From Escherichia coli (GTDB lineage: Bacteria; Pseudomonadota; Gammaproteobacteria; Enterobacterales; Enterobacteriaceae), in NCBI RefSeq assembly GCF_003018255.1, contig NZ_CP027440.1: a DNA stretch of 64,000 nt. One strand, written 5' to 3'. Both the position numbers and the translations under genes were made by a program. Positions 11,598 to 19,904 of the stretch are shown here, in pieces (within the stretch, counting starts at the first letter, position 1; each line of letters starts with the position of its first letter). The notes beneath the pieces are model-generated. The model did no database searches, was not told where the DNA came from, and saw nothing but the letters and a program-made list of their open reading frames with translations.

Positions 11598-13748
11598 TTA
11601 GTGGTGCGAAGAGATCTTCACGCCGCCTTCCGGGATTGGAACGTACGGAGTTTCTTTGTCAGTACGTTTGTCGCTGTTACGCACCGCAAGCCAGGTTTTG
11701 AAACCGTAGAAGATGATGCTGTACACCACAATCAGGAACAGAATACTCAGACCCGCGTTAGTGTAGTTGTTCACAACGATGTGGTTCATGTTGGCAATCT
11801 GCTGTGCCGTCAGGTCAGTACCGTTAGCAATCTTCTCTTTGTACTGGCTTGCCATGTAGAAGAAGCCTTCCATCTGCGGGTTGGTGCTGAACAGTTTCAG
11901 GCCCAGCGCCCAGGTGGTGCAGATAAGCAGCCATACAGCCGGAACAACAGTTACCCAGATGTATTGGGTGCGCTTCATCTTAATCAGCACAACGGTGCCC
12001 AGTACCAGTGCTACGGCTGCCAGCATCTGGTTGGAAATACCGAACAGCGGCCACAGGCTCTTAACGCCGCCCAGCGGATCGACCACGCCCTGATACAGCA
12101 GGTAGCCCCACAGACCCACACAGCCCGCAGTACCGATGATACCAGCAACCAGAGAGTCGGTTTTTTTCAGGAACGGGATGAAGTTACCCAGCAGGTCTTG
12201 CAGCATAAAGCGGCCAGAACGGGTACCCGCATCCAGCGCGGTCAGGATGAACAGGGCTTCGAACAGAATACCGAAGTGATACCAGAAGCCCATGTCAGCC
12301 ATCGGCAGCACTTTGTGGAACACGTGCGCGATACCTACCGCCAGCGTCGGCGCACCACCTGCACGGTTCAGGACAGAAGGTTCACCAATGTCTTTCGCGG
12401 TTTGCAGGATCTGCTCTGGCGAAATCACGAAGCCCCAGGAGCTGACGGTCGCCGCCGCGTGTGCGGTAACGTCTTTCAACTGCGCCATGATGATCGGCGC
12501 GTTCTCGCCACCCATTTCATGCAGGTTAGGCATGGTGATGCCAAGGCCAGCAGGCGGGGTGTTCATCGCGAAGTAAAGACCCGGTTCGATGATGGACGCA
12601 GCAACCAGCGCCATAATCGCCACGAAGGACTCCATCAGCATTGCGCCGTAGCCAATGAAACGCGCGTCGGTTTCGTTAGCCAGCAGTTTCGGCGTCGTAC
12701 CGGAAGAGATCAGCGCGTGGAAGCCAGATACCGCACCACAGGCGATGGTGATGAACAGGAACGGGAACAGAGCGCCTTTCCACAGCGGGCCAGTACCGTC
12801 AATGTACTGGGTCATCGCAGGCATTTTCAGTTCCGGGTTCAGCACCACGATACCCAGCGCCAGGCCGACGATAACGCCGATTTTCAGGAAGGTTGCCAGA
12901 TAGTCGCGTGGTGCGAGGATCAGCCACACCGGCAGCAGCGCGGAAACAAACGCATAGCCAATCAGCGCGAAGGTAATGGTGGTGTCTTTAAAGGTCAGTG
13001 CCGGACCCCAGTACGGATCGTGAGCAATCACGCCACCGAAGTAGATAGAGGCAACCAGCAGCACGATACCAATGACAGAGACTTCACCCACACGCCCCGG
13101 ACGAATAAAGCGCATGTAGATACCCATAAACAGCGCAATCGGTACGGTTGAGCAAACGGTGAAGACACCCCACGGACTTTCGGCCAGGGCTTTAACCACA
13201 ATCAGCGCCAGGACGGCGAGGATGATGATCATGATTAAGAAACAGCCAAACAGCGCGATAGTCCCCGGTACTGGCCCCATCTCTTCTTTGATCATCTCAC
13301 CAAGAGATGCGCCATTACGGCGAGAGGAGATAAACAGCACCATAAAGTCCTGAACCGCACCGGCCAGCACGACCCCCGCCAGCAGCCACAGCGTGCCAGG
13401 CAGGTAGCCCATCTGCGCGGCGAGAACCGGACCCACCAGCGGACCTGCACCGGCGATAGCGGCGAAGTGGTGACCAAACAACACGTAACGGTTGGTCGGA
13501 ACGTAGTTCAGACCGTCGTTGTTAATAACCGCAGGCGTCGCGCGCGTGGGGTCGAGTTTCATCACCTTCTGGGCGATGTACAGACTGTAGTAGCGATAAG
13601 CCACCAGATACACCGACACAGAGGCGACCACGATCCACAGGGCGCTGACGTGCTCCCCCCGACGTAATGCAACTACCGCGAGGCAGAATGCACCGATGAT
13701 TCCGAGAATCACCCAGGGTATGTGCTTGAATATCTTTTTAGTATCCAT
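11598..13748 (-). CDS. btsT: CstA-family pyruvate/H+ symporter
   Basis: 716 aa polytopic protein starting MDTKKIFKHIPWVILG, matching K-12 YjiY/BtsT. Confidence 0.93.
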   Translation of the reverse strand: MDTKKIFKHIPWVILGIIGAFCLAVVALRRGEHVSALWIVVASVSVYLVAYRYYSLYIAQKVMKLDPTRATPAVINNDGLNYVPTNRYVLFGHHFAAIAGAGPLVGPVLAAQMGYLPGTLWLLAGVVLAGAVQDFMVLFISSRRNGASLGEMIKEEMGPVPGTIALFGCFLIMIIILAVLALIVVKALAESPWGVFTVCSTVPIALFMGIYMRFIRPGRVGEVSVIGIVLLVASIYFGGVIAHDPYWGPALTFKDTTITFALIGYAFVSALLPVWLILAPRDYLATFLKIGVIVGLALGIVVLNPELKMPAMTQYIDGTGPLWKGALFPFLFITIACGAVSGFHALISSGTTPKLLANETDARFIGYGAMLMESFVAIMALVAASIIEPGLYFAMNTPPAGLGITMPNLHEMGGENAPIIMAQLKDVTAHAAATVSSWGFVISPEQILQTAKDIGEPSVLNRAGGAPTLAVGIAHVFHKVLPMADMGFWYHFGILFEALFILTALDAGTRSGRFMLQDLLGNFIPFLKKTDSLVAGIIGTAGCVGLWGYLLYQGVVDPLGGVKSLWPLFGISNQMLAAVALVLGTVVLIKMKRTQYIWVTVVPAVWLLICTTWALGLKLFSTNPQMEGFFYMASQYKEKIANGTDLTAQQIANMNHIVVNNYTNAGLSILFLIVVYSIIFYGFKTWLAVRNSDKRTDKETPYVPIPEGGVKISSHH

Positions 13749-13904
13749 AGTAAAACCTGGCATGTATTGATTAATAGTTGGCCGAAGCCGTTCTAGGTTT
13801 GCGTTGCGTTTGAGGAGGTAAATTGACCGCTATCCTGCAGTGATGTTGCCAGAGTTACGCGCGCGTAAAGTAAGGTAAATAACTGAGTGGTTATTTTAGG
13901 GACG

Positions 13905-13932
13905 TAAGCGGTCAGGAATGGCGGTGAGCGGT
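13905..13932 (-). promoter_or_regulatory. Candidate BtsR (YehT, LytTR) binding direct repeat upstream of btsT
   Basis: The minus strand reads ACCGCTCA-N12-ACCGCTTA, which resembles the ACC[G/T]CT[C/T]A direct repeat reported for the yjiY promoter (memory; I recall a 13-bp spacer). Confidence 0.5.
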
Positions 13933-13960
13933 TGGGCAAGAATTATTCGTCGGGTGGATA

Positions 13961-13976
13961 TGTGATTGAGATCACA
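13961..13976. promoter_or_regulatory. Consensus CRP site upstream of btsT
   Basis: TGTGAttgagaTCACA has perfect half-sites. btsT (yjiY) is reported to be cAMP-CRP dependent. Confidence 0.6.
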
Positions 13977-14011
13977 ATAAAAATGCCCCTTCGATAATTA
14001 ACCGAAGGGGC
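13977..14011 (-). terminator. Rho-independent terminator of the PLP-enzyme gene
   Basis: GCCCCTTCG (13985-13993) pairs with CGAAGGGGC (14003-14011). On the minus strand it is followed by ATTTTT. Confidence 0.75.
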
Positions 14012-14015
14012 GTTC

Positions 14016-15236
14016 TTAGAAGAGAGTGTCTAATTCTGCCAGTACGTTGTAGTCGTCATCAGTCAATAACAACGTTTTCCATTTGTCGAAGGTCAGGCAC
14101 GGATGCGATGTGCCAAACACCAGAATATCCCCCACTTGCACGTCGCTATTAGCTGACAGTTGCAACATGCAGTGCTGATCCATAATACCTGTACTGCGAA
14201 TCGCCTGTGGATCAAATGCCAGTGATTTGCCGTTGCGGTAGTGGGCGACTGGTTGCGGCAGTCCGGCGTCGAAGGCGCAATCACGCTTACCAAAATTTAC
14301 CACCGCACGATCAGCTTCCGGCACCGATTGCACCATGGCGACCAGTTCCAGCGCAGATGTGAGATCGCCTGCCAGATCGCAGGCCACAGGATCACGGGCA
14401 AGCAACTGTTGTTGTGCCGCGTCGTAGATCCCGGTGTCGTGAGTGATGTAGCAGCCAGGGCGAATAACAATGCGGCAGTTATCAGGCTTTTCTGCCGCCA
14501 GCCAGATATTGCACACCACGTCATACCAGACCGTGCCTGCTCCGGTGAGAATAAACTCGCCATCAACCAGACTTGCCATATCACAGGCCAGTTGTGCGGC
14601 ATCCCGCAGCAGAGCTTCTACCTGCGGTTGTGGATCGTCACCGTGTAAAACGCCTTCATATAACTCAAGCCCCCGCAGGCGTAACCCCGGTAATTGGGCT
14701 GCCTGTTTAGCCAGTGTCAGTGCGGCATCCCTTGAGCGGCAACCACAGCGCCCGCCGGGGACACCCAACTCAATCATCACGTTCAGTGTCTGTTGCTGAC
14801 TGGCAAAAAAGGCAGACAAAGCGCGGGCGTTCTCAATGCTGTCGATACAGCAGATAAAATCGACCGTCGGGTAATGTCGTTGCAACTGGGCAATCAACTG
14901 CATATTCGCCTTGCCGACCAGCTGGTTAACCATCAGCACTCGCTGAATACCGCTCGCCATTGCCGCACCAGCCTGCCATGCGCTACCGACACCTATTGCC
15001 CAGGCGCCTGCCGCCTGCTGCGCCTGAAAAATCCACGGCGTCATGGTGGTTTTACCGTGCGGTGCCAGCGAAACGCCGCGCGCGTCAGCATAACGCTGCA
15101 TCCACGTAATGTTGTTCTCCAGGGCCTGCTTTTTAATGATCGCGGCAGGTAAACAGACATCTTCGGCAAGGAGATTTGCGGGCATTTGCATCAGGGCAGA
15201 TTTATGGGGAACCAGAGGTTCTGAGTGGTATTTCAT
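14016..15236 (-). CDS. PLP-dependent D-serine/D-threonine dehydratase or aldolase-like enzyme (alanine-racemase-N fold, DSD1 family)
   Basis: 406 aa. It has a PHGKT lysine motif (SLAPHGKTTM) and a C-terminal HPC motif (GTSHPCLTFDKW), as in the D-Ser dehydratase-like family. I remember it as absent from K-12 at this locus. Confidence 0.75.
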   Translation of the reverse strand: MKYHSEPLVPHKSALMQMPANLLAEDVCLPAAIIKKQALENNITWMQRYADARGVSLAPHGKTTMTPWIFQAQQAAGAWAIGVGSAWQAGAAMASGIQRVLMVNQLVGKANMQLIAQLQRHYPTVDFICCIDSIENARALSAFFASQQQTLNVMIELGVPGGRCGCRSRDAALTLAKQAAQLPGLRLRGLELYEGVLHGDDPQPQVEALLRDAAQLACDMASLVDGEFILTGAGTVWYDVVCNIWLAAEKPDNCRIVIRPGCYITHDTGIYDAAQQQLLARDPVACDLAGDLTSALELVAMVQSVPEADRAVVNFGKRDCAFDAGLPQPVAHYRNGKSLAFDPQAIRSTGIMDQHCMLQLSANSDVQVGDILVFGTSHPCLTFDKWKTLLLTDDDYNVLAELDTLF

Positions 15237-15436
15237 AACATTTACCTTTTAAGTTTTTCACCGTATCGGATGTGAGTATCACTTGTAACTAAATGAAATA
15301 TAAATATTTAGTTTATTTATCTTATTATTTATGAATAAAAGTATCATAAAATCATCTGGGTTTTGCGTAGTTTTCCACTGTTTTTCGTCCTTGTAAATGG
15401 TTAACTTGTCACCATTGCAGAAATGGAGTGACGAAC

Positions 15437-16879
15437 ATGCAGGTTGACTGGTTAATCAAAAATGTGACCGTTATCGACGGTAGCGGCGGCCCTGAATTTC
15501 GCGGTGACGTGGCAATAACAGGTGATCGGATTGTCGATATTGCCCCTGCGCTTAACGTTACGGCGCAGCAGGTCATTGACGGGGAAGGGCGGGTGCTGGC
15601 ACCCGGGTTTATCGACGTTCATACCCATGACGATATCAACGTTATTCGCATCCCGGAATATCTGCCAAAGATCAGCCAGGGGATCACTACGGTGATTGTC
15701 GGTAACTGCGGGATTAGTGCGGCGTCGGCGAAAATGAAAGGTGAAGTTCCTGACCCGATGAATCTGTTGGGGGAAGCAGAGCACTTTATTTATCCTACCG
15801 TTGAAAGCTATGCCCAGGCAGTGGAAGCAGCCAGGCCGTCACTGAACGTTGGCACGCTGATTGGTCATACGGCGCTGCGTAATAACCATATGGACGACCT
15901 GTTTCGCCCGGCGACGGTGGATGAAATTGCCGCTATGCGTGCCGACTTACGTCTGGCGTTGAGTCAGGGGGCGCTGGGGTTAAGTTCCGGGCTGGCCTAT
16001 GCAACGGCATTTCAGGCGACTACCGAAGAAGTCATGGCGCTGGCGGAAGAATTAGCCGGTGAGAAGGGCGTTTATACCACCCATCTGCGTTCTGAATTTG
16101 AACCGATTCTCGATGCCCTGGATGAGGCGTTTCGTATTGGGCGTCATGGCAAAGTGCCTGTCGTGGTTTCCCACCATAAATGTGCCGGGGCGAAAAACTG
16201 GGGGCGGACAAAAGAAACGTTGGCCTTTTTTGACCAAATGCGTCAACACCAGGAAATTGGCTGCGATGTCTACCCTTACTCAGCCAGCTCTTCAACGCTG
16301 GATCTCAAACAAGTCACCGACGAATTCGATATTGTGATCACCTGGTCACAAACACATCCGCAGCAGGCCGGGAAAACACTGGCGCAAATCGCCATCGACT
16401 GGCAGATGAGTATGCTGGAGGCCGCGAAGCTGCTAATGCCTGCCGGGGCTATCTATTACAACATGGACGAGCGCGACGTCCGCCGAGTGTTGAGTTATCC
16501 GGTCAGTATGATTGGCTCTGACGGCCTGCCCAATGATCCCATGCCGCATCCACGTTTATGGGGCGCCTTCCCTCGCGTGCTGGGCCACTATTGCCGTGAT
16601 GAAGGCTTATTCCCACTGACCACGGCTATCCACAAAATGACCGGGCTTTCTGCCAGCCGTTTTCGCCTGCCCCAGCGTGGACTGGTGAAAGTCGGTTATT
16701 TTGCGGACCTGGTGTTGTTCGATCCACAAACCATTCGTGATGTTGCCAGCTTTTCTGATCCCAAACGCCCGGCAGATGGCATTGAGGCGGTGATGGTGAA
16801 CGGCGTTATGAGCTATGGTCCCGATAAACATATTACAGGCCGTGCGGGACGCTTCCTGCGCCGGCAGACCTCACATTAA
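15437..16879 (+). CDS. N-acyl-D-amino-acid deacylase (D-aminoacylase), amidohydrolase superfamily
   Basis: WLIKNVTVIDGSG ... PGFIDVHTHDD (HxH metal site). GGAG lies 8 nt upstream of ATG 15437; the track start at 15428 is GTG. Confidence 0.8.
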   Translation: MQVDWLIKNVTVIDGSGGPEFRGDVAITGDRIVDIAPALNVTAQQVIDGEGRVLAPGFIDVHTHDDINVIRIPEYLPKISQGITTVIVGNCGISAASAKMKGEVPDPMNLLGEAEHFIYPTVESYAQAVEAARPSLNVGTLIGHTALRNNHMDDLFRPATVDEIAAMRADLRLALSQGALGLSSGLAYATAFQATTEEVMALAEELAGEKGVYTTHLRSEFEPILDALDEAFRIGRHGKVPVVVSHHKCAGAKNWGRTKETLAFFDQMRQHQEIGCDVYPYSASSSTLDLKQVTDEFDIVITWSQTHPQQAGKTLAQIAIDWQMSMLEAAKLLMPAGAIYYNMDERDVRRVLSYPVSMIGSDGLPNDPMPHPRLWGAFPRVLGHYCRDEGLFPLTTAIHKMTGLSASRFRLPQRGLVKVGYFADLVLFDPQTIRDVASFSDPKRPADGIEAVMVNGVMSYGPDKHITGRAGRFLRRQTSH

Positions 16880-16888
16880 GGAGTGAAT

Positions 16889-17278
16889 ATGAGCATTAAA
16901 CGTTACGGTACGGAAGGTGGAACAGGCACTGGCGGGCAGCATTTGCCTTTTGCCAGGGCGGTTGAGGCGGGCGGCTGGCTGTACGTCTCCGGGCAAACAC
17001 CCATGAAAAACGGTGAAGTGGTAGAAGGCGGAATCGTTGAACAGTCACGACTGGCGATCCAAAACTGTGTCGACATCATGACTGAAGCCGGTTATAGCCT
17101 GGCGGATGTGGTTCACGTGAAAGTGATCCTGACCGACGCCCGCTATTTCCAGTCATTTAATAAAGTATTCAGAGAATTTTTTGGCGAGAATCCGCCTGCA
17201 CGTATTTGTTGTGTGGCTGATCTGGTTGTCGATTGTAAAGTCGAAGTCGATGTGACCTGTTATAACGCGACCCGCTAA
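16889..17278 (+). CDS. RidA/YjgF-family enamine/imine deaminase
   Basis: 129 aa. AAGGAG lies 5 nt upstream of ATG 16889. The YjgF-like core is GWLYVSGQTP ... ARICCVADLVVDCKVEVDV. Confidence 0.8.
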   Translation: MSIKRYGTEGGTGTGGQHLPFARAVEAGGWLYVSGQTPMKNGEVVEGGIVEQSRLAIQNCVDIMTEAGYSLADVVHVKVILTDARYFQSFNKVFREFFGENPPARICCVADLVVDCKVEVDVTCYNATR

Positions 17279-17380
17279 TAAATTTAAGAATTAAAAAAAC
17301 AGACCGCAATTGAGTGCTGAATACATTCAGCACTCCGGGAACTCTTACATTAATTTCTCTCTACTGGCAGGATGTGAATT

Positions 17381-18850
17381 ATGAACAGTCATATCTTTTT
17401 AGTCGGCTTTATTATTTATGCCATCGCCATGATTTGGCTTGGTTGGTTTGTTTCTCGTAATCAGAAAAGCGGAGAAGATTTTCTGCTGGGCGGGCGTTCG
17501 CTGCCGCTGTTTCTGACGCTGGGGTCAACCGTTGCCACGATGGTTGGCACGGGTTCCAGTATGGGGGCAGTGGGCTTTGGCTACAGCAATGGCTGGGCCG
17601 GAATGCTTTATGGCGTCGGTGGAGCCGTAGGTATATTGCTGGTGGCGTGGCTGTTTGCACCGGTACGTAAATTACGTTTTATGACCATGAGTGAAGAACT
17701 CTCTTATTATACTGGCGGTAGTCATTTAATTAAAAATATTGTCGGCCTGATGATATTTATTGCCTCTATTGGCTGGCTGGGGGCGCATATATTAGGTGGA
17801 AGTATGTATCTTGCCTGGGCGACGGGTATTGATCTTACTGTGGCAAAATTAATTATCGCCTTAGCTTTTGCGATTTATGTTATTATCGGCGGTTATTCGG
17901 CGGTAGTGTGGACAGATACTATTCAGGCCCTAATTCTGTTCTTTGGCTTTATATTAATGGCTATTCTTGCCGTTGTTCACGTTGGCGGCTGGAGTGCGAT
18001 TGAGCAGGCGATGGACCCAAAAGCGATGAGCCTGTTTGCGATTGATAAAATGGGCGTGCTGCCTGCGCTTTCGCTGGCACTGGTTATTGGCGTAGGTGTG
18101 CTGGCAACACCGTCTTATCGCCAGCGTATTTACTCGGGTAAAGATGTTCCCTCTGTACGCCGTTCGTTTGTTATTACTGGGGTGTTATATCTGTTCTTCT
18201 CGATTTTGCCTGCCATTATCGGCATGGCGGCGTTCACCATGAACCCAAATCTGGAAAACAGCAACTACGCCTTCTTGTTCGCGACCAGTTTCTTACCTGC
18301 CATTCTTGGGCTGGTGGTGCTGATTGCCGGGCTTTCAGCCACCATGTCTTCTGCCAGCTCCGATGCCATCGCGGCGGTGGCGATTATGATGCGCGACGTC
18401 TACACCATGATTACCGGCAGAATGCCGCCGGAGGACAAGGCCATTACTTACTCACGCTGGATGTTGACCTTTGTTATTGGCCTGGCGCTGGTCTTTGCTC
18501 TGACCTCTAATGACATCATCAGCTACATTACCAAAATGATTTCGATGCTGATGTCCGGGCTGTTTATCTGCTCGATTCTCGGTCGCTTCTGGCTACGCTT
18601 TAACTGGCAGGGCGCGCTGGCGGTGTTAGTGAGCGGTATGGTGATGTCAATTGTGGTGCTGATGAATGCCGACTGGCTGGCTTACTGGGGTAACCCGTGT
18701 ATTCCGTCAGTGCTGGGCAGCCTGGTCGCTGGCGTACTGGTGACGTTGGTAACGCCAGCAAGTCAGGTCAGCCGGGAAGAAGCTTTGGCGATTATCACCA
18801 ATGAGCGTGAAAACCAGAGTGTCGTGATCACCAAACCTGAAGAAGCATAA
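17381..18850 (+). CDS. Sodium:solute symporter (SSS) family transporter
   Basis: 489 aa, about 13 TM, with the N-terminal motif EDFLLGGRSLP typical of PutP/PanF-type SSS carriers. Confidence 0.8.
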   Translation: MNSHIFLVGFIIYAIAMIWLGWFVSRNQKSGEDFLLGGRSLPLFLTLGSTVATMVGTGSSMGAVGFGYSNGWAGMLYGVGGAVGILLVAWLFAPVRKLRFMTMSEELSYYTGGSHLIKNIVGLMIFIASIGWLGAHILGGSMYLAWATGIDLTVAKLIIALAFAIYVIIGGYSAVVWTDTIQALILFFGFILMAILAVVHVGGWSAIEQAMDPKAMSLFAIDKMGVLPALSLALVIGVGVLATPSYRQRIYSGKDVPSVRRSFVITGVLYLFFSILPAIIGMAAFTMNPNLENSNYAFLFATSFLPAILGLVVLIAGLSATMSSASSDAIAAVAIMMRDVYTMITGRMPPEDKAITYSRWMLTFVIGLALVFALTSNDIISYITKMISMLMSGLFICSILGRFWLRFNWQGALAVLVSGMVMSIVVLMNADWLAYWGNPCIPSVLGSLVAGVLVTLVTPASQVSREEALAIITNERENQSVVITKPEEA

Positions 18851-18859
18851 CCAACAATG

Positions 18860-19765
18860 CTAATCGCCAAGTGGCTGGCGGTTAGCGCCCCCACGGTGGC
18901 TGTCTAACACCAGTTTTATCCGCCGCAGGCGATCTTTCGCCTGCGCTTTATTTGCCATTGCCAGTTCTGTTGCCAGTACATCGACCATGGCTAACATCGC
19001 GTAGCGGGAAGGGGTGGGCTTAAAGATGTAATCACTTTCCTGAACCAGTAACGGCAATACCAGATCCACCTGTTCCGCCAGCGGTGTTTGTGCTGGTGTA
19101 ATGGCAATAACACGCGCGCCATACTGACGGGCGATTGCCGCACTTTCGATGATTTCCGGTGTATAACCGCCCAGCGACAGTACAATCACCACATCCTGCG
19201 GCATCACTGCCGAGCACATCATTCTCATCATCAGGGCATCATTCTGACTGACCACCGGTAGCCCCAGACGGAATAAACGGTACTGAATCTCCTGTGAACA
19301 GATGGTGGAACCGCCGCCAGTTCCCAATGCAAGAATTTGCCGCGCCTGACTTAACCAGCTTACAGCCTGGCTGATGGCATTCATATCCAGCGAACGACGA
19401 TGCGTTTCCAGCACGCTAATAATCGCTTCGTAGATCCCCTGAACACCGTCAAGATCCGGTACATCGAGAATAAACCGCTGCCCGACAGCCAGTGACTGCG
19501 CCAGTTTGACTTTCAACTCGCGGACATCTTTGCACCCCAGTGCACGGGCAAAACGCGTCACCGACGCCTGACTGGTTTGCGTTAACCGCGCCAGCTCAGC
19601 AATGGGCAGTTCCACCGCGGCGGGGACATCATCAAGAATAAATTGTGCGATACGCTTTTCAGTGGCGGTTAACGCCATAAACCGTTCGGTAATACAGGAG
19701 ATGATATCGATGCTATAAGCCATAGGAGTATCACTGGTTCGAAGAAGATTGATACTTTGTACCAT
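18860..19765 (-). CDS. RpiR/MurR-family regulator (HTH plus SIS domain)
   Basis: LTATEKRIAQFILDD ... HTH_6-like N-terminus, with a SIS domain (ILALGTGGGSTICSQE). The start is uncertain: 19765, 19723 or 19678. Confidence 0.8.
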   Translation of the reverse strand: MVQSINLLRTSDTPMAYSIDIISCITERFMALTATEKRIAQFILDDVPAAVELPIAELARLTQTSQASVTRFARALGCKDVRELKVKLAQSLAVGQRFILDVPDLDGVQGIYEAIISVLETHRRSLDMNAISQAVSWLSQARQILALGTGGGSTICSQEIQYRLFRLGLPVVSQNDALMMRMMCSAVMPQDVVIVLSLGGYTPEIIESAAIARQYGARVIAITPAQTPLAEQVDLVLPLLVQESDYIFKPTPSRYAMLAMVDVLATELAMANKAQAKDRLRRIKLVLDSHRGGANRQPLGD

Positions 19766-19846
19766 AAACTGCCGCTATAGAGTGTGACCCTCACAAAAAA
19801 CGCAAGTTTGCTGCAACAAAAGCAGTGCCGACGCTTTTCCACAGCA

Positions 19847-19873
19847 TAAAGTTTTCCACCACCAGGCCGACAA
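19847..19873 (+). promoter_or_regulatory. Sigma-28 (FliA) promoter of tsr
   Basis: TAAAGTTT-N11-GCCGACAA against the consensus TAAAGTTT-N11-GCCGATAA, about 30 bp upstream of the tsr start. Confidence 0.75.
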
Positions 19874-19904
19874 CCAGTGTATCTGTCTAGTGGAAAGAGA
19901 AACC

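Follow-up and report, generated by a model that had tools for sequence, protein, structure and literature searches.

A five-gene segment between btsT and tsr of Escherichia coli as a predicted minimal ong cluster for the catabolism of N-acetylated 2-amino-2-deoxy-hexonic acids

We analyzed a 64,000-nt stretch of the Escherichia coli contig NZ_CP027440.1 (“the window”; all coordinates are window positions), in which the annotation of the flanking genes places a block of five genes between btsT and tsr. We call these genes ongC, ongB, ongD, ongIT, and ongR, after the ong cluster for N-acetyl-D-glucosaminic acid (GlcNAc1A) of Pseudoalteromonas prydzensis, with which they are compared below. The ongC gene (14016-15236, minus strand) encodes a fold-type III pyridoxal phosphate (PLP) enzyme that resembles D-Ser dehydratase (PF01168 and PF14031). 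It is adjacent to and divergent from ongB (15437-16879, plus strand, with an alternative GTG start at 15428), which encodes a subtype V amidohydrolase (PF07969). On the same strand as ongB follow ongD (16889-17278, plus strand; RidA family, PF01042) and ongIT (17381-18850, plus strand), which encodes a sodium:solute symporter of the SSS family (PF00474). The last gene, ongR (18860-19723, minus strand, with an alternative upstream start at 19765), encodes a MurR/RpiR regulator with HTH_6 and SIS domains (PF01418 and PF01380) and is convergent with ongIT, their stop codons lying 9 bp apart. The RefSeq annotation of a 99.5%-identical genome agrees with our list of open reading frames (ORFs) for all five genes, and an Rfam scan of the interval gave no non-coding RNA match. 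An earlier note on this DNA had assigned the same five gene types to the same strands, with the deacylase gene divergent and the symporter and regulator genes convergent, and these assignments are borne out by the ORFs, the RefSeq annotation, and Pfam. The two motifs that it had singled out are present as well, PHGKT at residues 59-63 of the PLP enzyme and DVHTHDD at residues 63-69 of the deacylase (GTG numbering).

In database comparisons, OngB is 84% identical to KleDacyl of Klebsiella pneumoniae (PDB 9G5M/9GV8; WP_002887553.1) and 54% identical (E = 4e-167) to the crystallized P. prydzensis enzyme PpOngB (9KB1/9KB3). The classical D-aminoacylases score below both (E = 4e-136 and 3e-116), and dihydroorotases and hydantoinases match only in the N-terminal beta-sandwich, at E ~1e-9 or weaker. 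A grouping of the deacylase with this last set of enzymes, which the earlier note had named as an outcome that would count against its own proposal, did not occur. On these E values we rule out such a kinship; the protein groups with OngB, next to the D-aminoacylases.

An ungapped alignment shows that 19 of the 20 metal, catalytic, and substrate-contact residues of PpOngB are identical in E. coli OngB. The functions that these residues have in PpOngB, as metal and catalytic groups, as anchors of the acetamido and carboxylate groups, and as contacts of the sugar hydroxyls, have been described (PMC12017989, JBC 2025). In ATG numbering, the E. coli enzyme has the metal ligands C91/H216/H246, the catalytic D362, and the specificity residues S286/Q292, and its DVHTHDD motif contributes the HxH of the alpha metal site, a site that is usually empty, the catalytic metal of this subtype being bound by Cys/His/His. 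S286 and Q292 correspond to Ser292 and Gln298 of PpOngB, which were found by mutagenesis to separate GlcNAc1A deacetylases from D-aminoacylases, where Thr and Leu or Arg take their place (PMC12017989). Specifically, Ser and Gln of the E. coli enzyme stand in place of Thr plus Leu in AfDam and of Thr plus Arg in BbDam, both classical D-aminoacylases, and small residues stand in place of the Phe and Met of AfDam. The E. coli pocket thus reads Ser, Gln, Ala, Ala, and the D-aminoacylase pocket (Thr at Pp292, Leu or Arg at Pp298, and a Phe and Met lining) is not found in it. In our cluster survey, which took the 80 best loci from one-genome-per-species data and did not include the P. prydzensis genome, Gln298 does not vary and 78 of the loci have Ser292. 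The published enzymology follows the same division: PpOngB, PaOngB, and PfOngB deacetylate GlcNAc1A only and are inactive on all N-acetyl-D-amino acids tested, including N-acetyl-D-Ser and N-acetyl-D-Glu (PMC9537276; PMC12017989), PpOngB reaches a kcat/Km of 1.6 per mM per s on GlcNAc1A, and AfDam and BbDam have no activity on this compound (PMC12017989). We therefore predict from its residues that E. coli OngB is an N-acetyl-hexosaminate (GlcNAc1A-type) de-N-acetylase.

The ong cluster itself was defined in P. prydzensis ACAM 620 by transcriptomics, gene knock-outs, and enzymology (Jiang 2022, Nat Commun 13:5899; PMC9537276). In that organism, OngIT imports GlcNAc1A, the C1-oxidized monomer released from chitin treated with lytic polysaccharide monooxygenase (LPMO), OngB deacetylates it, and OngC eliminates ammonia to give 2-keto-3-deoxygluconate (KDG) (PMC9537276). 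The E. coli island has the same five protein types (OngC, OngB, OngD, OngIT, and OngR): an OngB-type site is combined with an adjacent fold-type III PLP enzyme, and RidA, SSS, and MurR/RpiR proteins are encoded in the same cluster. The full oxidative-chitin pathway is not encoded there, as the island differs from that of P. prydzensis in having no LPMO, no TonB-dependent receptor OngOT-1, no GH20 OngA, and no in-cluster PfkB KDG kinase. The position of the regulator gene differs too, ongR being at the far end, convergent with ongIT, in E. coli and between ongC and ongB in P. prydzensis. Using an operational rule of at least four co-occurring homologues at >30% identity, Jiang et al. listed 13 E. 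coli strains, E. fergusonii ECD227, and one Escherichia sp. as ong-cluster-positive in their Supplementary Data 3, with ongC/R/B/D/IT consecutive and lpmo, ongOT-1, kdgK, and ongA scored “-”; E. coli is never discussed in the main text of that paper (PMC9537276). The kind of system is thus known and the E. coli instance already tabulated, and what our analysis adds is refinement, not discovery.

Across the 80 surveyed loci, OngC is linked to OngB in 51, OngC, OngB, and OngD occur together in 49 (from Gammaproteobacteria, Burkholderiales, and Acidobacteria), and all five proteins occur together in 13. OngB was compared with P. prydzensis directly, and the other four proteins with a canonical Vibrio cluster that also carries KdgK, Eda, and the GH20 protein OngA; the identities of E. 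coli OngC, OngB, OngD, OngIT, and OngR to the Vibrio proteins are 47%, 61%, 85%, 69%, and 53%, respectively. The closest relatives of the E. coli island are seven-gene clusters of Klebsiella, Raoultella, Buttiauxella, and Dryocola, arranged as ongC | ongB-ongD-ongIT-dgoK-dgoA | ongR. In these clusters, the shared five genes have the same order and orientation, the proteins are 73-95% identical to those of E. coli, and the control blocks described below are conserved. They differ from the E. coli island in a DgoK-family kinase and a DgoA-type aldolase encoded between ongIT and ongR, neither of which, nor any remnant of them, is present in E. coli, and in a higher G+C content at third codon positions (GC3; 0.68-0.77 versus 0.52-0.58).

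The remaining four proteins fit the same assignment. OngC matches PDB entry 3gwq (“D-serine deaminase”) at E = 1e-106; its PLP lysine is Lys62, it has a His378-Pro-Cys380 motif, and these Lys, His, and Cys residues are kept in 51 of 52 linked homologues. We predict, by analogy with P. prydzensis, that it is a 2-amino-2-deoxy-aldonate ammonia-lyase. OngD matches archetypal RidA structures (TdcF, YjgF, and 2-iminobutanoate deaminases) and has the catalytic RidA Arg in a PPAR motif that aligns with KPAR of PH0854. This residue is presumably the active-site Arg105 of Salmonella and E. coli RidA numbering. The TIGR00004 score of 82, below the cut-off of 106, marks OngD as a diverged RidA member, and it is 84-95% identical to enterobacterial and 75-87% identical to marine OngD proteins. 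OngD is essential in vivo in P. prydzensis (PMC9537276), and the E. coli protein is predicted to hydrolyze the 2-imino/enamine product of OngC. OngIT, for which we predict the import of N-acetyl-hexosaminate, is in P. prydzensis needed for growth on GlcNAc1A and encoded in a separate, OngR-independent operon (PMC9537276). In the window, a gap of 102 bp (17279-17380) separates ongD from ongIT. The best NCBIfam match of OngR is the HexR subfamily, under the cut-off of that model. In P. prydzensis, OngR is a repressor that is relieved during growth on GlcNAc1A (PMC9537276), and its E. coli counterpart is likewise predicted to repress ongC and ongB-ongD, possibly with ongIT.

A different route for a related compound is known in Salmonella. 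The dgaABCDEF D-glucosaminate pathway (MetaCyc PWY-7310) resembles ong in the PLP-dependent elimination of a 2-amino-2-deoxy-aldonate to a keto-deoxy sugar acid, and proceeds by uptake through the phosphotransferase system (PTS), D-glucosaminate-6-phosphate ammonia-lyase, and KDPG (2-keto-3-deoxy-6-phosphogluconate) aldolase; it differs in that phosphorylation through the PTS comes first, the lyase is unrelated, regulation is through sigma-54 and an enhancer-binding protein, and there is no deacetylase. A link of the island to the D-glucosaminate pathway of extraintestinal pathogenic E. coli STc95 was ruled out, since that pathway is the unrelated dga PTS pathway. To our knowledge, the dga pathway and the E. 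coli ong island have no homologous components in common. A search of the Biolog literature on D-glucosaminic acid in Klebsiella yielded nothing usable.

We conclude that the segment is, in all likelihood, a minimal five-gene E. coli ong cluster for the catabolism of N-acetylated 2-amino-2-deoxy-hexonic acids, with GlcNAc1A as the leading candidate; that GlcNAc1A is indeed the substrate has, in our estimate, an even chance of being right. In the pathway that orthology suggests, OngIT would import the acid, and OngB, with its Cys/His/His-bound metal and Asp362 (the residues for which were checked in the alignment), would remove the acetyl group to give the free D-2-amino-aldonate and acetate. 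OngC, with PLP on Lys62, would then eliminate the C3 hydroxyl and the amino group to give 2-keto-3-deoxy-hexonate and NH3, OngD would speed the hydrolysis of the enamine or imine, and OngR would keep its target genes repressed until the substrate or a downstream phospho-intermediate appears. Since neither a kinase nor an aldolase is encoded in the island, the product would have to be finished by the core enzymes KdgK and Eda, if it is KDG, or by DgoK and DgoA, if it is 2-keto-3-deoxygalactonate (KDGal); among 5,426 complete E. coli genomes, 5,421 (99.9%) have kdgK and 5,020 (92.5%) have dgoKA. Since E. coli also lacks LPMO, the TonB receptor, and OngA, it would scavenge free monomer that other organisms make or that arises from chemical or enzymatic oxidation.

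The earlier note had arrived at much of this logic. Its four steps of SSS uptake, deacylation, PLP-dependent elimination, and RidA action match the established ong route in all but the role of OngD (PMC9537276), and its hint, taken from the RpiR/SIS regulator, at an amino-sugar-derived substrate is borne out. Its substrate class is not supported. The chemistry is right, since GlcNAc1A can formally be regarded as an N-acetyl-D-alpha-amino acid that has a beta-hydroxyl, but N-acyl-D-amino acids as a generic class are unlikely substrates in view of the OngB-specific pocket and the inactivity of OngB enzymes on N-acetyl-D-amino acids, and the substrates proposed there, N-acetyl-D-Ser, -Thr, and -Ala, are probably wrong.

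Several points weigh against the assignment to GlcNAc1A-type catabolism. E. coli OngC is just 47% identical to its Vibrio counterpart, and one pocket residue of OngB is changed, Gly348 of PpOngB being Asn in E. coli. The upstream chitin-oxidizing functions are missing, and a natural source of the substrate in the habitats of E. coli is not apparent. A literature search found no experimental test of any enterobacterial ong cluster. KleDacyl, the closest assayed relative of OngB, hydrolyzes N-acetyl-D-Met, -Phe, and -Trp, and GlcNAc1A was never tried with it (PMC12149444). Finally, the DgoK and DgoA proteins of the nearest relatives fit a galacto-configured product better than KDG.

This last point leads to the alternative that we take most seriously, namely, that the enterobacterial ong branch, E. 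coli included, is specialized for N-acetyl-D-galactosaminic acid or takes both epimers, with D-galactosaminate converted to 2-keto-3-deoxy-galactonate and further metabolized by DgoK and DgoA (the De Ley-Doudoroff lower pathway). KDG is the elimination product of glucosaminate and KDGal that of galactosaminate, such that the embedded DgoK and DgoA hint at the galacto epimer. The embedded genes are present in all nearest enterobacterial relatives, namely, two Raoultella genomes, K. oxytoca, Dryocola, Buttiauxella, and K. pneumoniae (e.g., positions 13428-14889 of locus L006, and K. pneumoniae records H91 and H92), and both products match KDGal- or 2-keto-3-deoxy-6-phosphogalactonate (KDPGal)-type enzymes. 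Specifically, for the kinase (PF05035) the match to the KDGal kinase 3R1X has E = 6e-92 and the identity to E. coli DgoK is 51%, and the aldolase scores 302 bits against NF006600 (cut-off 207 bits), is 69% identical to E. coli DgoA, and matches the E. coli KDPGal aldolase 2V81 at E = 5e-86 versus ~1e-26 for KDPG aldolases. Marine clusters (Vibrio and Photobacterium) embed a PfkB KdgK and Eda instead. Under this alternative, E. coli has lost its in-cluster dgoKA and would depend on the chromosomal dgo operon, which most of its genomes could supply. Nevertheless, that operon is induced by D-galactonate and is not known to be induced by KDGal, whereas KDG induces kdgK and eda through KdgR, and such regulation would serve an island without its own dgoKA poorly. 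OngB shows no change at the residue in contact with the C4 hydroxyl (Pp E226) or at any other sugar contact. The changed pocket residue, Asn at Pp348, is also found in clusters without DgoK; as a marker of kinase type, this position was rejected for want of a clean correlation. Our literature search turned up no work on how galactosaminate is catabolized or on where it might come from in nature, and Jiang et al. referred to the Klebsiella genes as kdgK/kdgA and treated the cluster as a GlcNAc1A cluster (PMC9537276). Altogether, we regard the galacto reading, including the proposed loss of dgoKA from E. coli, as possible but rather unlikely.

KleDacyl bears on a second alternative, in which the island would be a general N-acyl-D-amino-acid module that deacylates N-acetyl-D-Ser, -Thr, -Ala, and the like and then dehydrates or deaminates the products to 2-oxo acids. 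This enzyme, which a 2025 paper presented as a D-acylase for making D-amino acids and did not connect with the ong pathway, is enantiospecific and also accepts N-acetyl-D-aminobutyrate (PMC12149444), and P. prydzensis OngC also deaminates D-Ser and D-Thr (PMC9537276), both of which favor a broader function. The efficiency of KleDacyl is very low, however, with Km values of 19-32 mM and kcat/Km values of 1.5-2.8 per min per mM; on N-acetyl-D-Met with 1 mM Co2+, a kcat/Km of 2.8 per min per mM (~47 per M per s) was reported (PMC12149444), which, when the published kinetics are compared, is ~30-fold below that of PpOngB on GlcNAc1A. Moreover, D-Met, D-Phe, and D-Trp have no beta leaving group, and a partner PLP eliminase therefore could not use them. 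The enzymes PpOngB, PaOngB, and PfOngB, with their strict specificity, the polar OngB-type pocket of E. coli (A/A/S/Q rather than Thr plus Leu/Arg), and the RpiR/SIS regulator and sugar-acid kinase and aldolase genes that accompany the cluster in relatives all speak against such a module, which we consider quite improbable. KleDacyl is the OngB orthologue of the Klebsiella ong/dgoKA cluster, and its activity on N-acetyl-D-amino acids is read here as promiscuity. A third alternative is that the five genes, deprived of kinase, aldolase, hexosaminidase, and outer-membrane receptor, are a decaying remnant that is no longer useful and on its way out. The island is present in only 194 of the 5,426 genomes (3.6%), dgoKA, which all other enterobacterial relatives have, is cleanly absent, and one interrupted and one truncated copy are known. 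Yet dN/dS between divergent island alleles is 0.00-0.11 in all five genes, among alleles with dS of up to 0.10, as expected under purifying selection, 193 of the 194 carriers have a full-length island, the control region is conserved across genera, and the core genome supplies the missing lower-pathway enzymes. Decay thus appears very improbable.

The control region that is conserved in this way lies between the divergent ongC and ongB genes (15237-15436) and holds three conserved blocks, TGAATAAAAGTATCA (15332-15346), TTTTGCGTAGTTTTCCACTGTTTTT (15361-15385), and CTTGTAAATGGTTAACTT (15390-15407). In an alignment of six genera, the blocks are invariant across five enterobacterial genera, and we regard them as candidate operators for OngR or candidate promoter elements. 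The AT-rich inverted repeats at 15286-15332 show no such conservation, and consensus scans of the ongC-ongB region gave no convincing CRP or strong sigma-70 site. At the other end of ongC, a terminator scan found a strong intrinsic terminator for this gene (13985-14011, minus strand), in which an 11-bp G+C-rich stem precedes a T-run that borders directly on the CRP site described next.

The island is bordered by two sites that the earlier note had correctly recognized as its flanks and that both lie outside it. On the left is a perfect CRP palindrome of the btsT control region, TGTGATTGAGATCACA (13961-13976), and on the right is the sigma-28 promoter of tsr (19847-19873, plus strand), composed of TAAAGTTT (19847-19854), an 11-nt spacer, and GCCGACAA (19866-19873). 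To define the exact junctions, for which a comparison with K-12 had been suggested, we aligned six alleles, namely, those of the window, SMS-3-5, an enterotoxigenic E. coli (ETEC) O6:H16 strain, a K-12-like strain, an O157 strain, and strain WAT, for which the extract stopped short of the CRP site. The CRP site is kept in the K-12, O157, ong, and hydroxyproline+ong alleles, in the last with one substitution (ATCACG), and these alleles part at 13977, directly past it. Homology of all six alleles picks up again only at CATAAAGTTTT (19845/19846). Therefore, the island-specific DNA is 13977-19844. The extent proposed before (13972-19796) ended ~50 bp short and missed the ongR promoter region, which lies in the island-specific right end (19724-19844).

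The hexamer TCACAA is present at both positions where the earlier note had placed it, 13972-13977 and 19791-19796, but its reading as a microhomology junction fails. The left copy is a half-site of the CRP palindrome, the right copy is ~50 bp inside the island, in the right end just described, and the window holds 34 copies versus 36.6 expected, which is a chance-level count.

Variation was also seen just outside the two edges. In the ong alleles, the tsr leader (19866-19893) is a diverged haplotype with ~10 differences in 28 nt, including the -10 element, which is GCCGACAA versus GCCGAAAA in K-12, and the stretch just upstream of the CRP site (13917-13960) is a distinct haplotype that is common to the hpa allele. 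These edge haplotypes suggest old linked variation at the hotspot edges. In addition, strain WAT, which carries the hpa allele, has an insertion of ~120 nt right at the start of btsT (~16250-16370 of its locus) that none of the other five alleles has.

Among its carriers, the island is always chromosomal and single-copy, with 97.2-99.4% identity, and a search of E. coli plasmids did not find the ong segment. An IS3-family element interrupts the segment in one carrier, and in another just ongC-ongB remains, which covers 40% of the query (genome hits H84 and H90). Among the matches listed, 16 of 60 carriers come from chickens, poultry, or wild birds, a count that is not normalized to the collection and may reflect lineage rather than ecology.

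The earlier note had pictured the segment as an insertion. Its G+C content is 51.6%, versus 51.0% for the window, and its GC3 is E. coli-like. Its dS values (0.015-0.10) are near those of btsT, tsr, and lgoT (0.05-0.15), and neither ORFs nor annotation revealed mobility genes in it. In K. oxytoca, the hpa genes, the ong cluster, and lgoT-lgoR-lgoD are contiguous, a neighborhood that is common with E. coli. The E. coli-like composition, the dS near that of the flanks, and the shared hpa ... lgoTRD neighborhood point to long residence as a polymorphic segment, and, together with the lack of mobility genes, they led us to rule out a recent horizontal insertion or mobile island.

The btsT-tsr interval is a catabolic hotspot with several alleles. 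It is empty in K-12, holds an ORF for a hypothetical protein of 180 amino acids in O157, an 11-kb hpa (4-hydroxyphenylacetate) cluster in WAT, ong alone in the window and SMS-3-5, and a nine-gene hydroxyproline-like module plus ong in ETEC O6:H16 (window, 13977-19844; loci L002 and L003; L084, 16642-27819; L086, 5893-15923). The hydroxyproline-like module encodes a 4-hydroxyproline epimerase, FAD oxidoreductases, a 2Fe-2S protein, an AraC regulator, a dihydrodipicolinate synthase (DHDPS)-family enzyme, an aldehyde dehydrogenase, an APC permease, and an Ldh-family oxidoreductase. In these alleles, ong is always on the tsr side. On this comparative evidence, the segment is best described as an old, selected presence/absence allele of a multi-allelic hotspot and not as a recent mobile insertion, and the alleles found in E. 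coli seem to reflect an old arrangement that was differentially retained or exchanged by recombination.

If our interpretation is correct, the ong assignment ties the published structure 9G5M to its likely physiological pathway, and the residual value of the analysis lies in the re-annotation of KleDacyl and of RefSeq product names and in the gluco-versus-galacto question. For the latter, the split between DgoK/DgoA and KdgK/Eda poses a simple, testable question on substrate stereochemistry in enterobacteria. Should the galacto reading turn out to be true, there would be an undescribed pathway for oxidized N-acetylgalactosamine (GalNAc), e.g., from mucin O-glycans or other GalNAc-rich glycans oxidized in the gut or the environment, and KleDacyl would have been characterized on non-physiological substrates. 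Should the assignment to N-acetylated 2-amino-2-deoxy-hexonic acids hold, ~4% of E. coli and most Klebsiella and Raoultella would be able to scavenge an oxidized amino sugar that is out of reach for K-12; such a nutrient niche, which varies among strains, may be tied to chitin-rich diets or oxidative environments.

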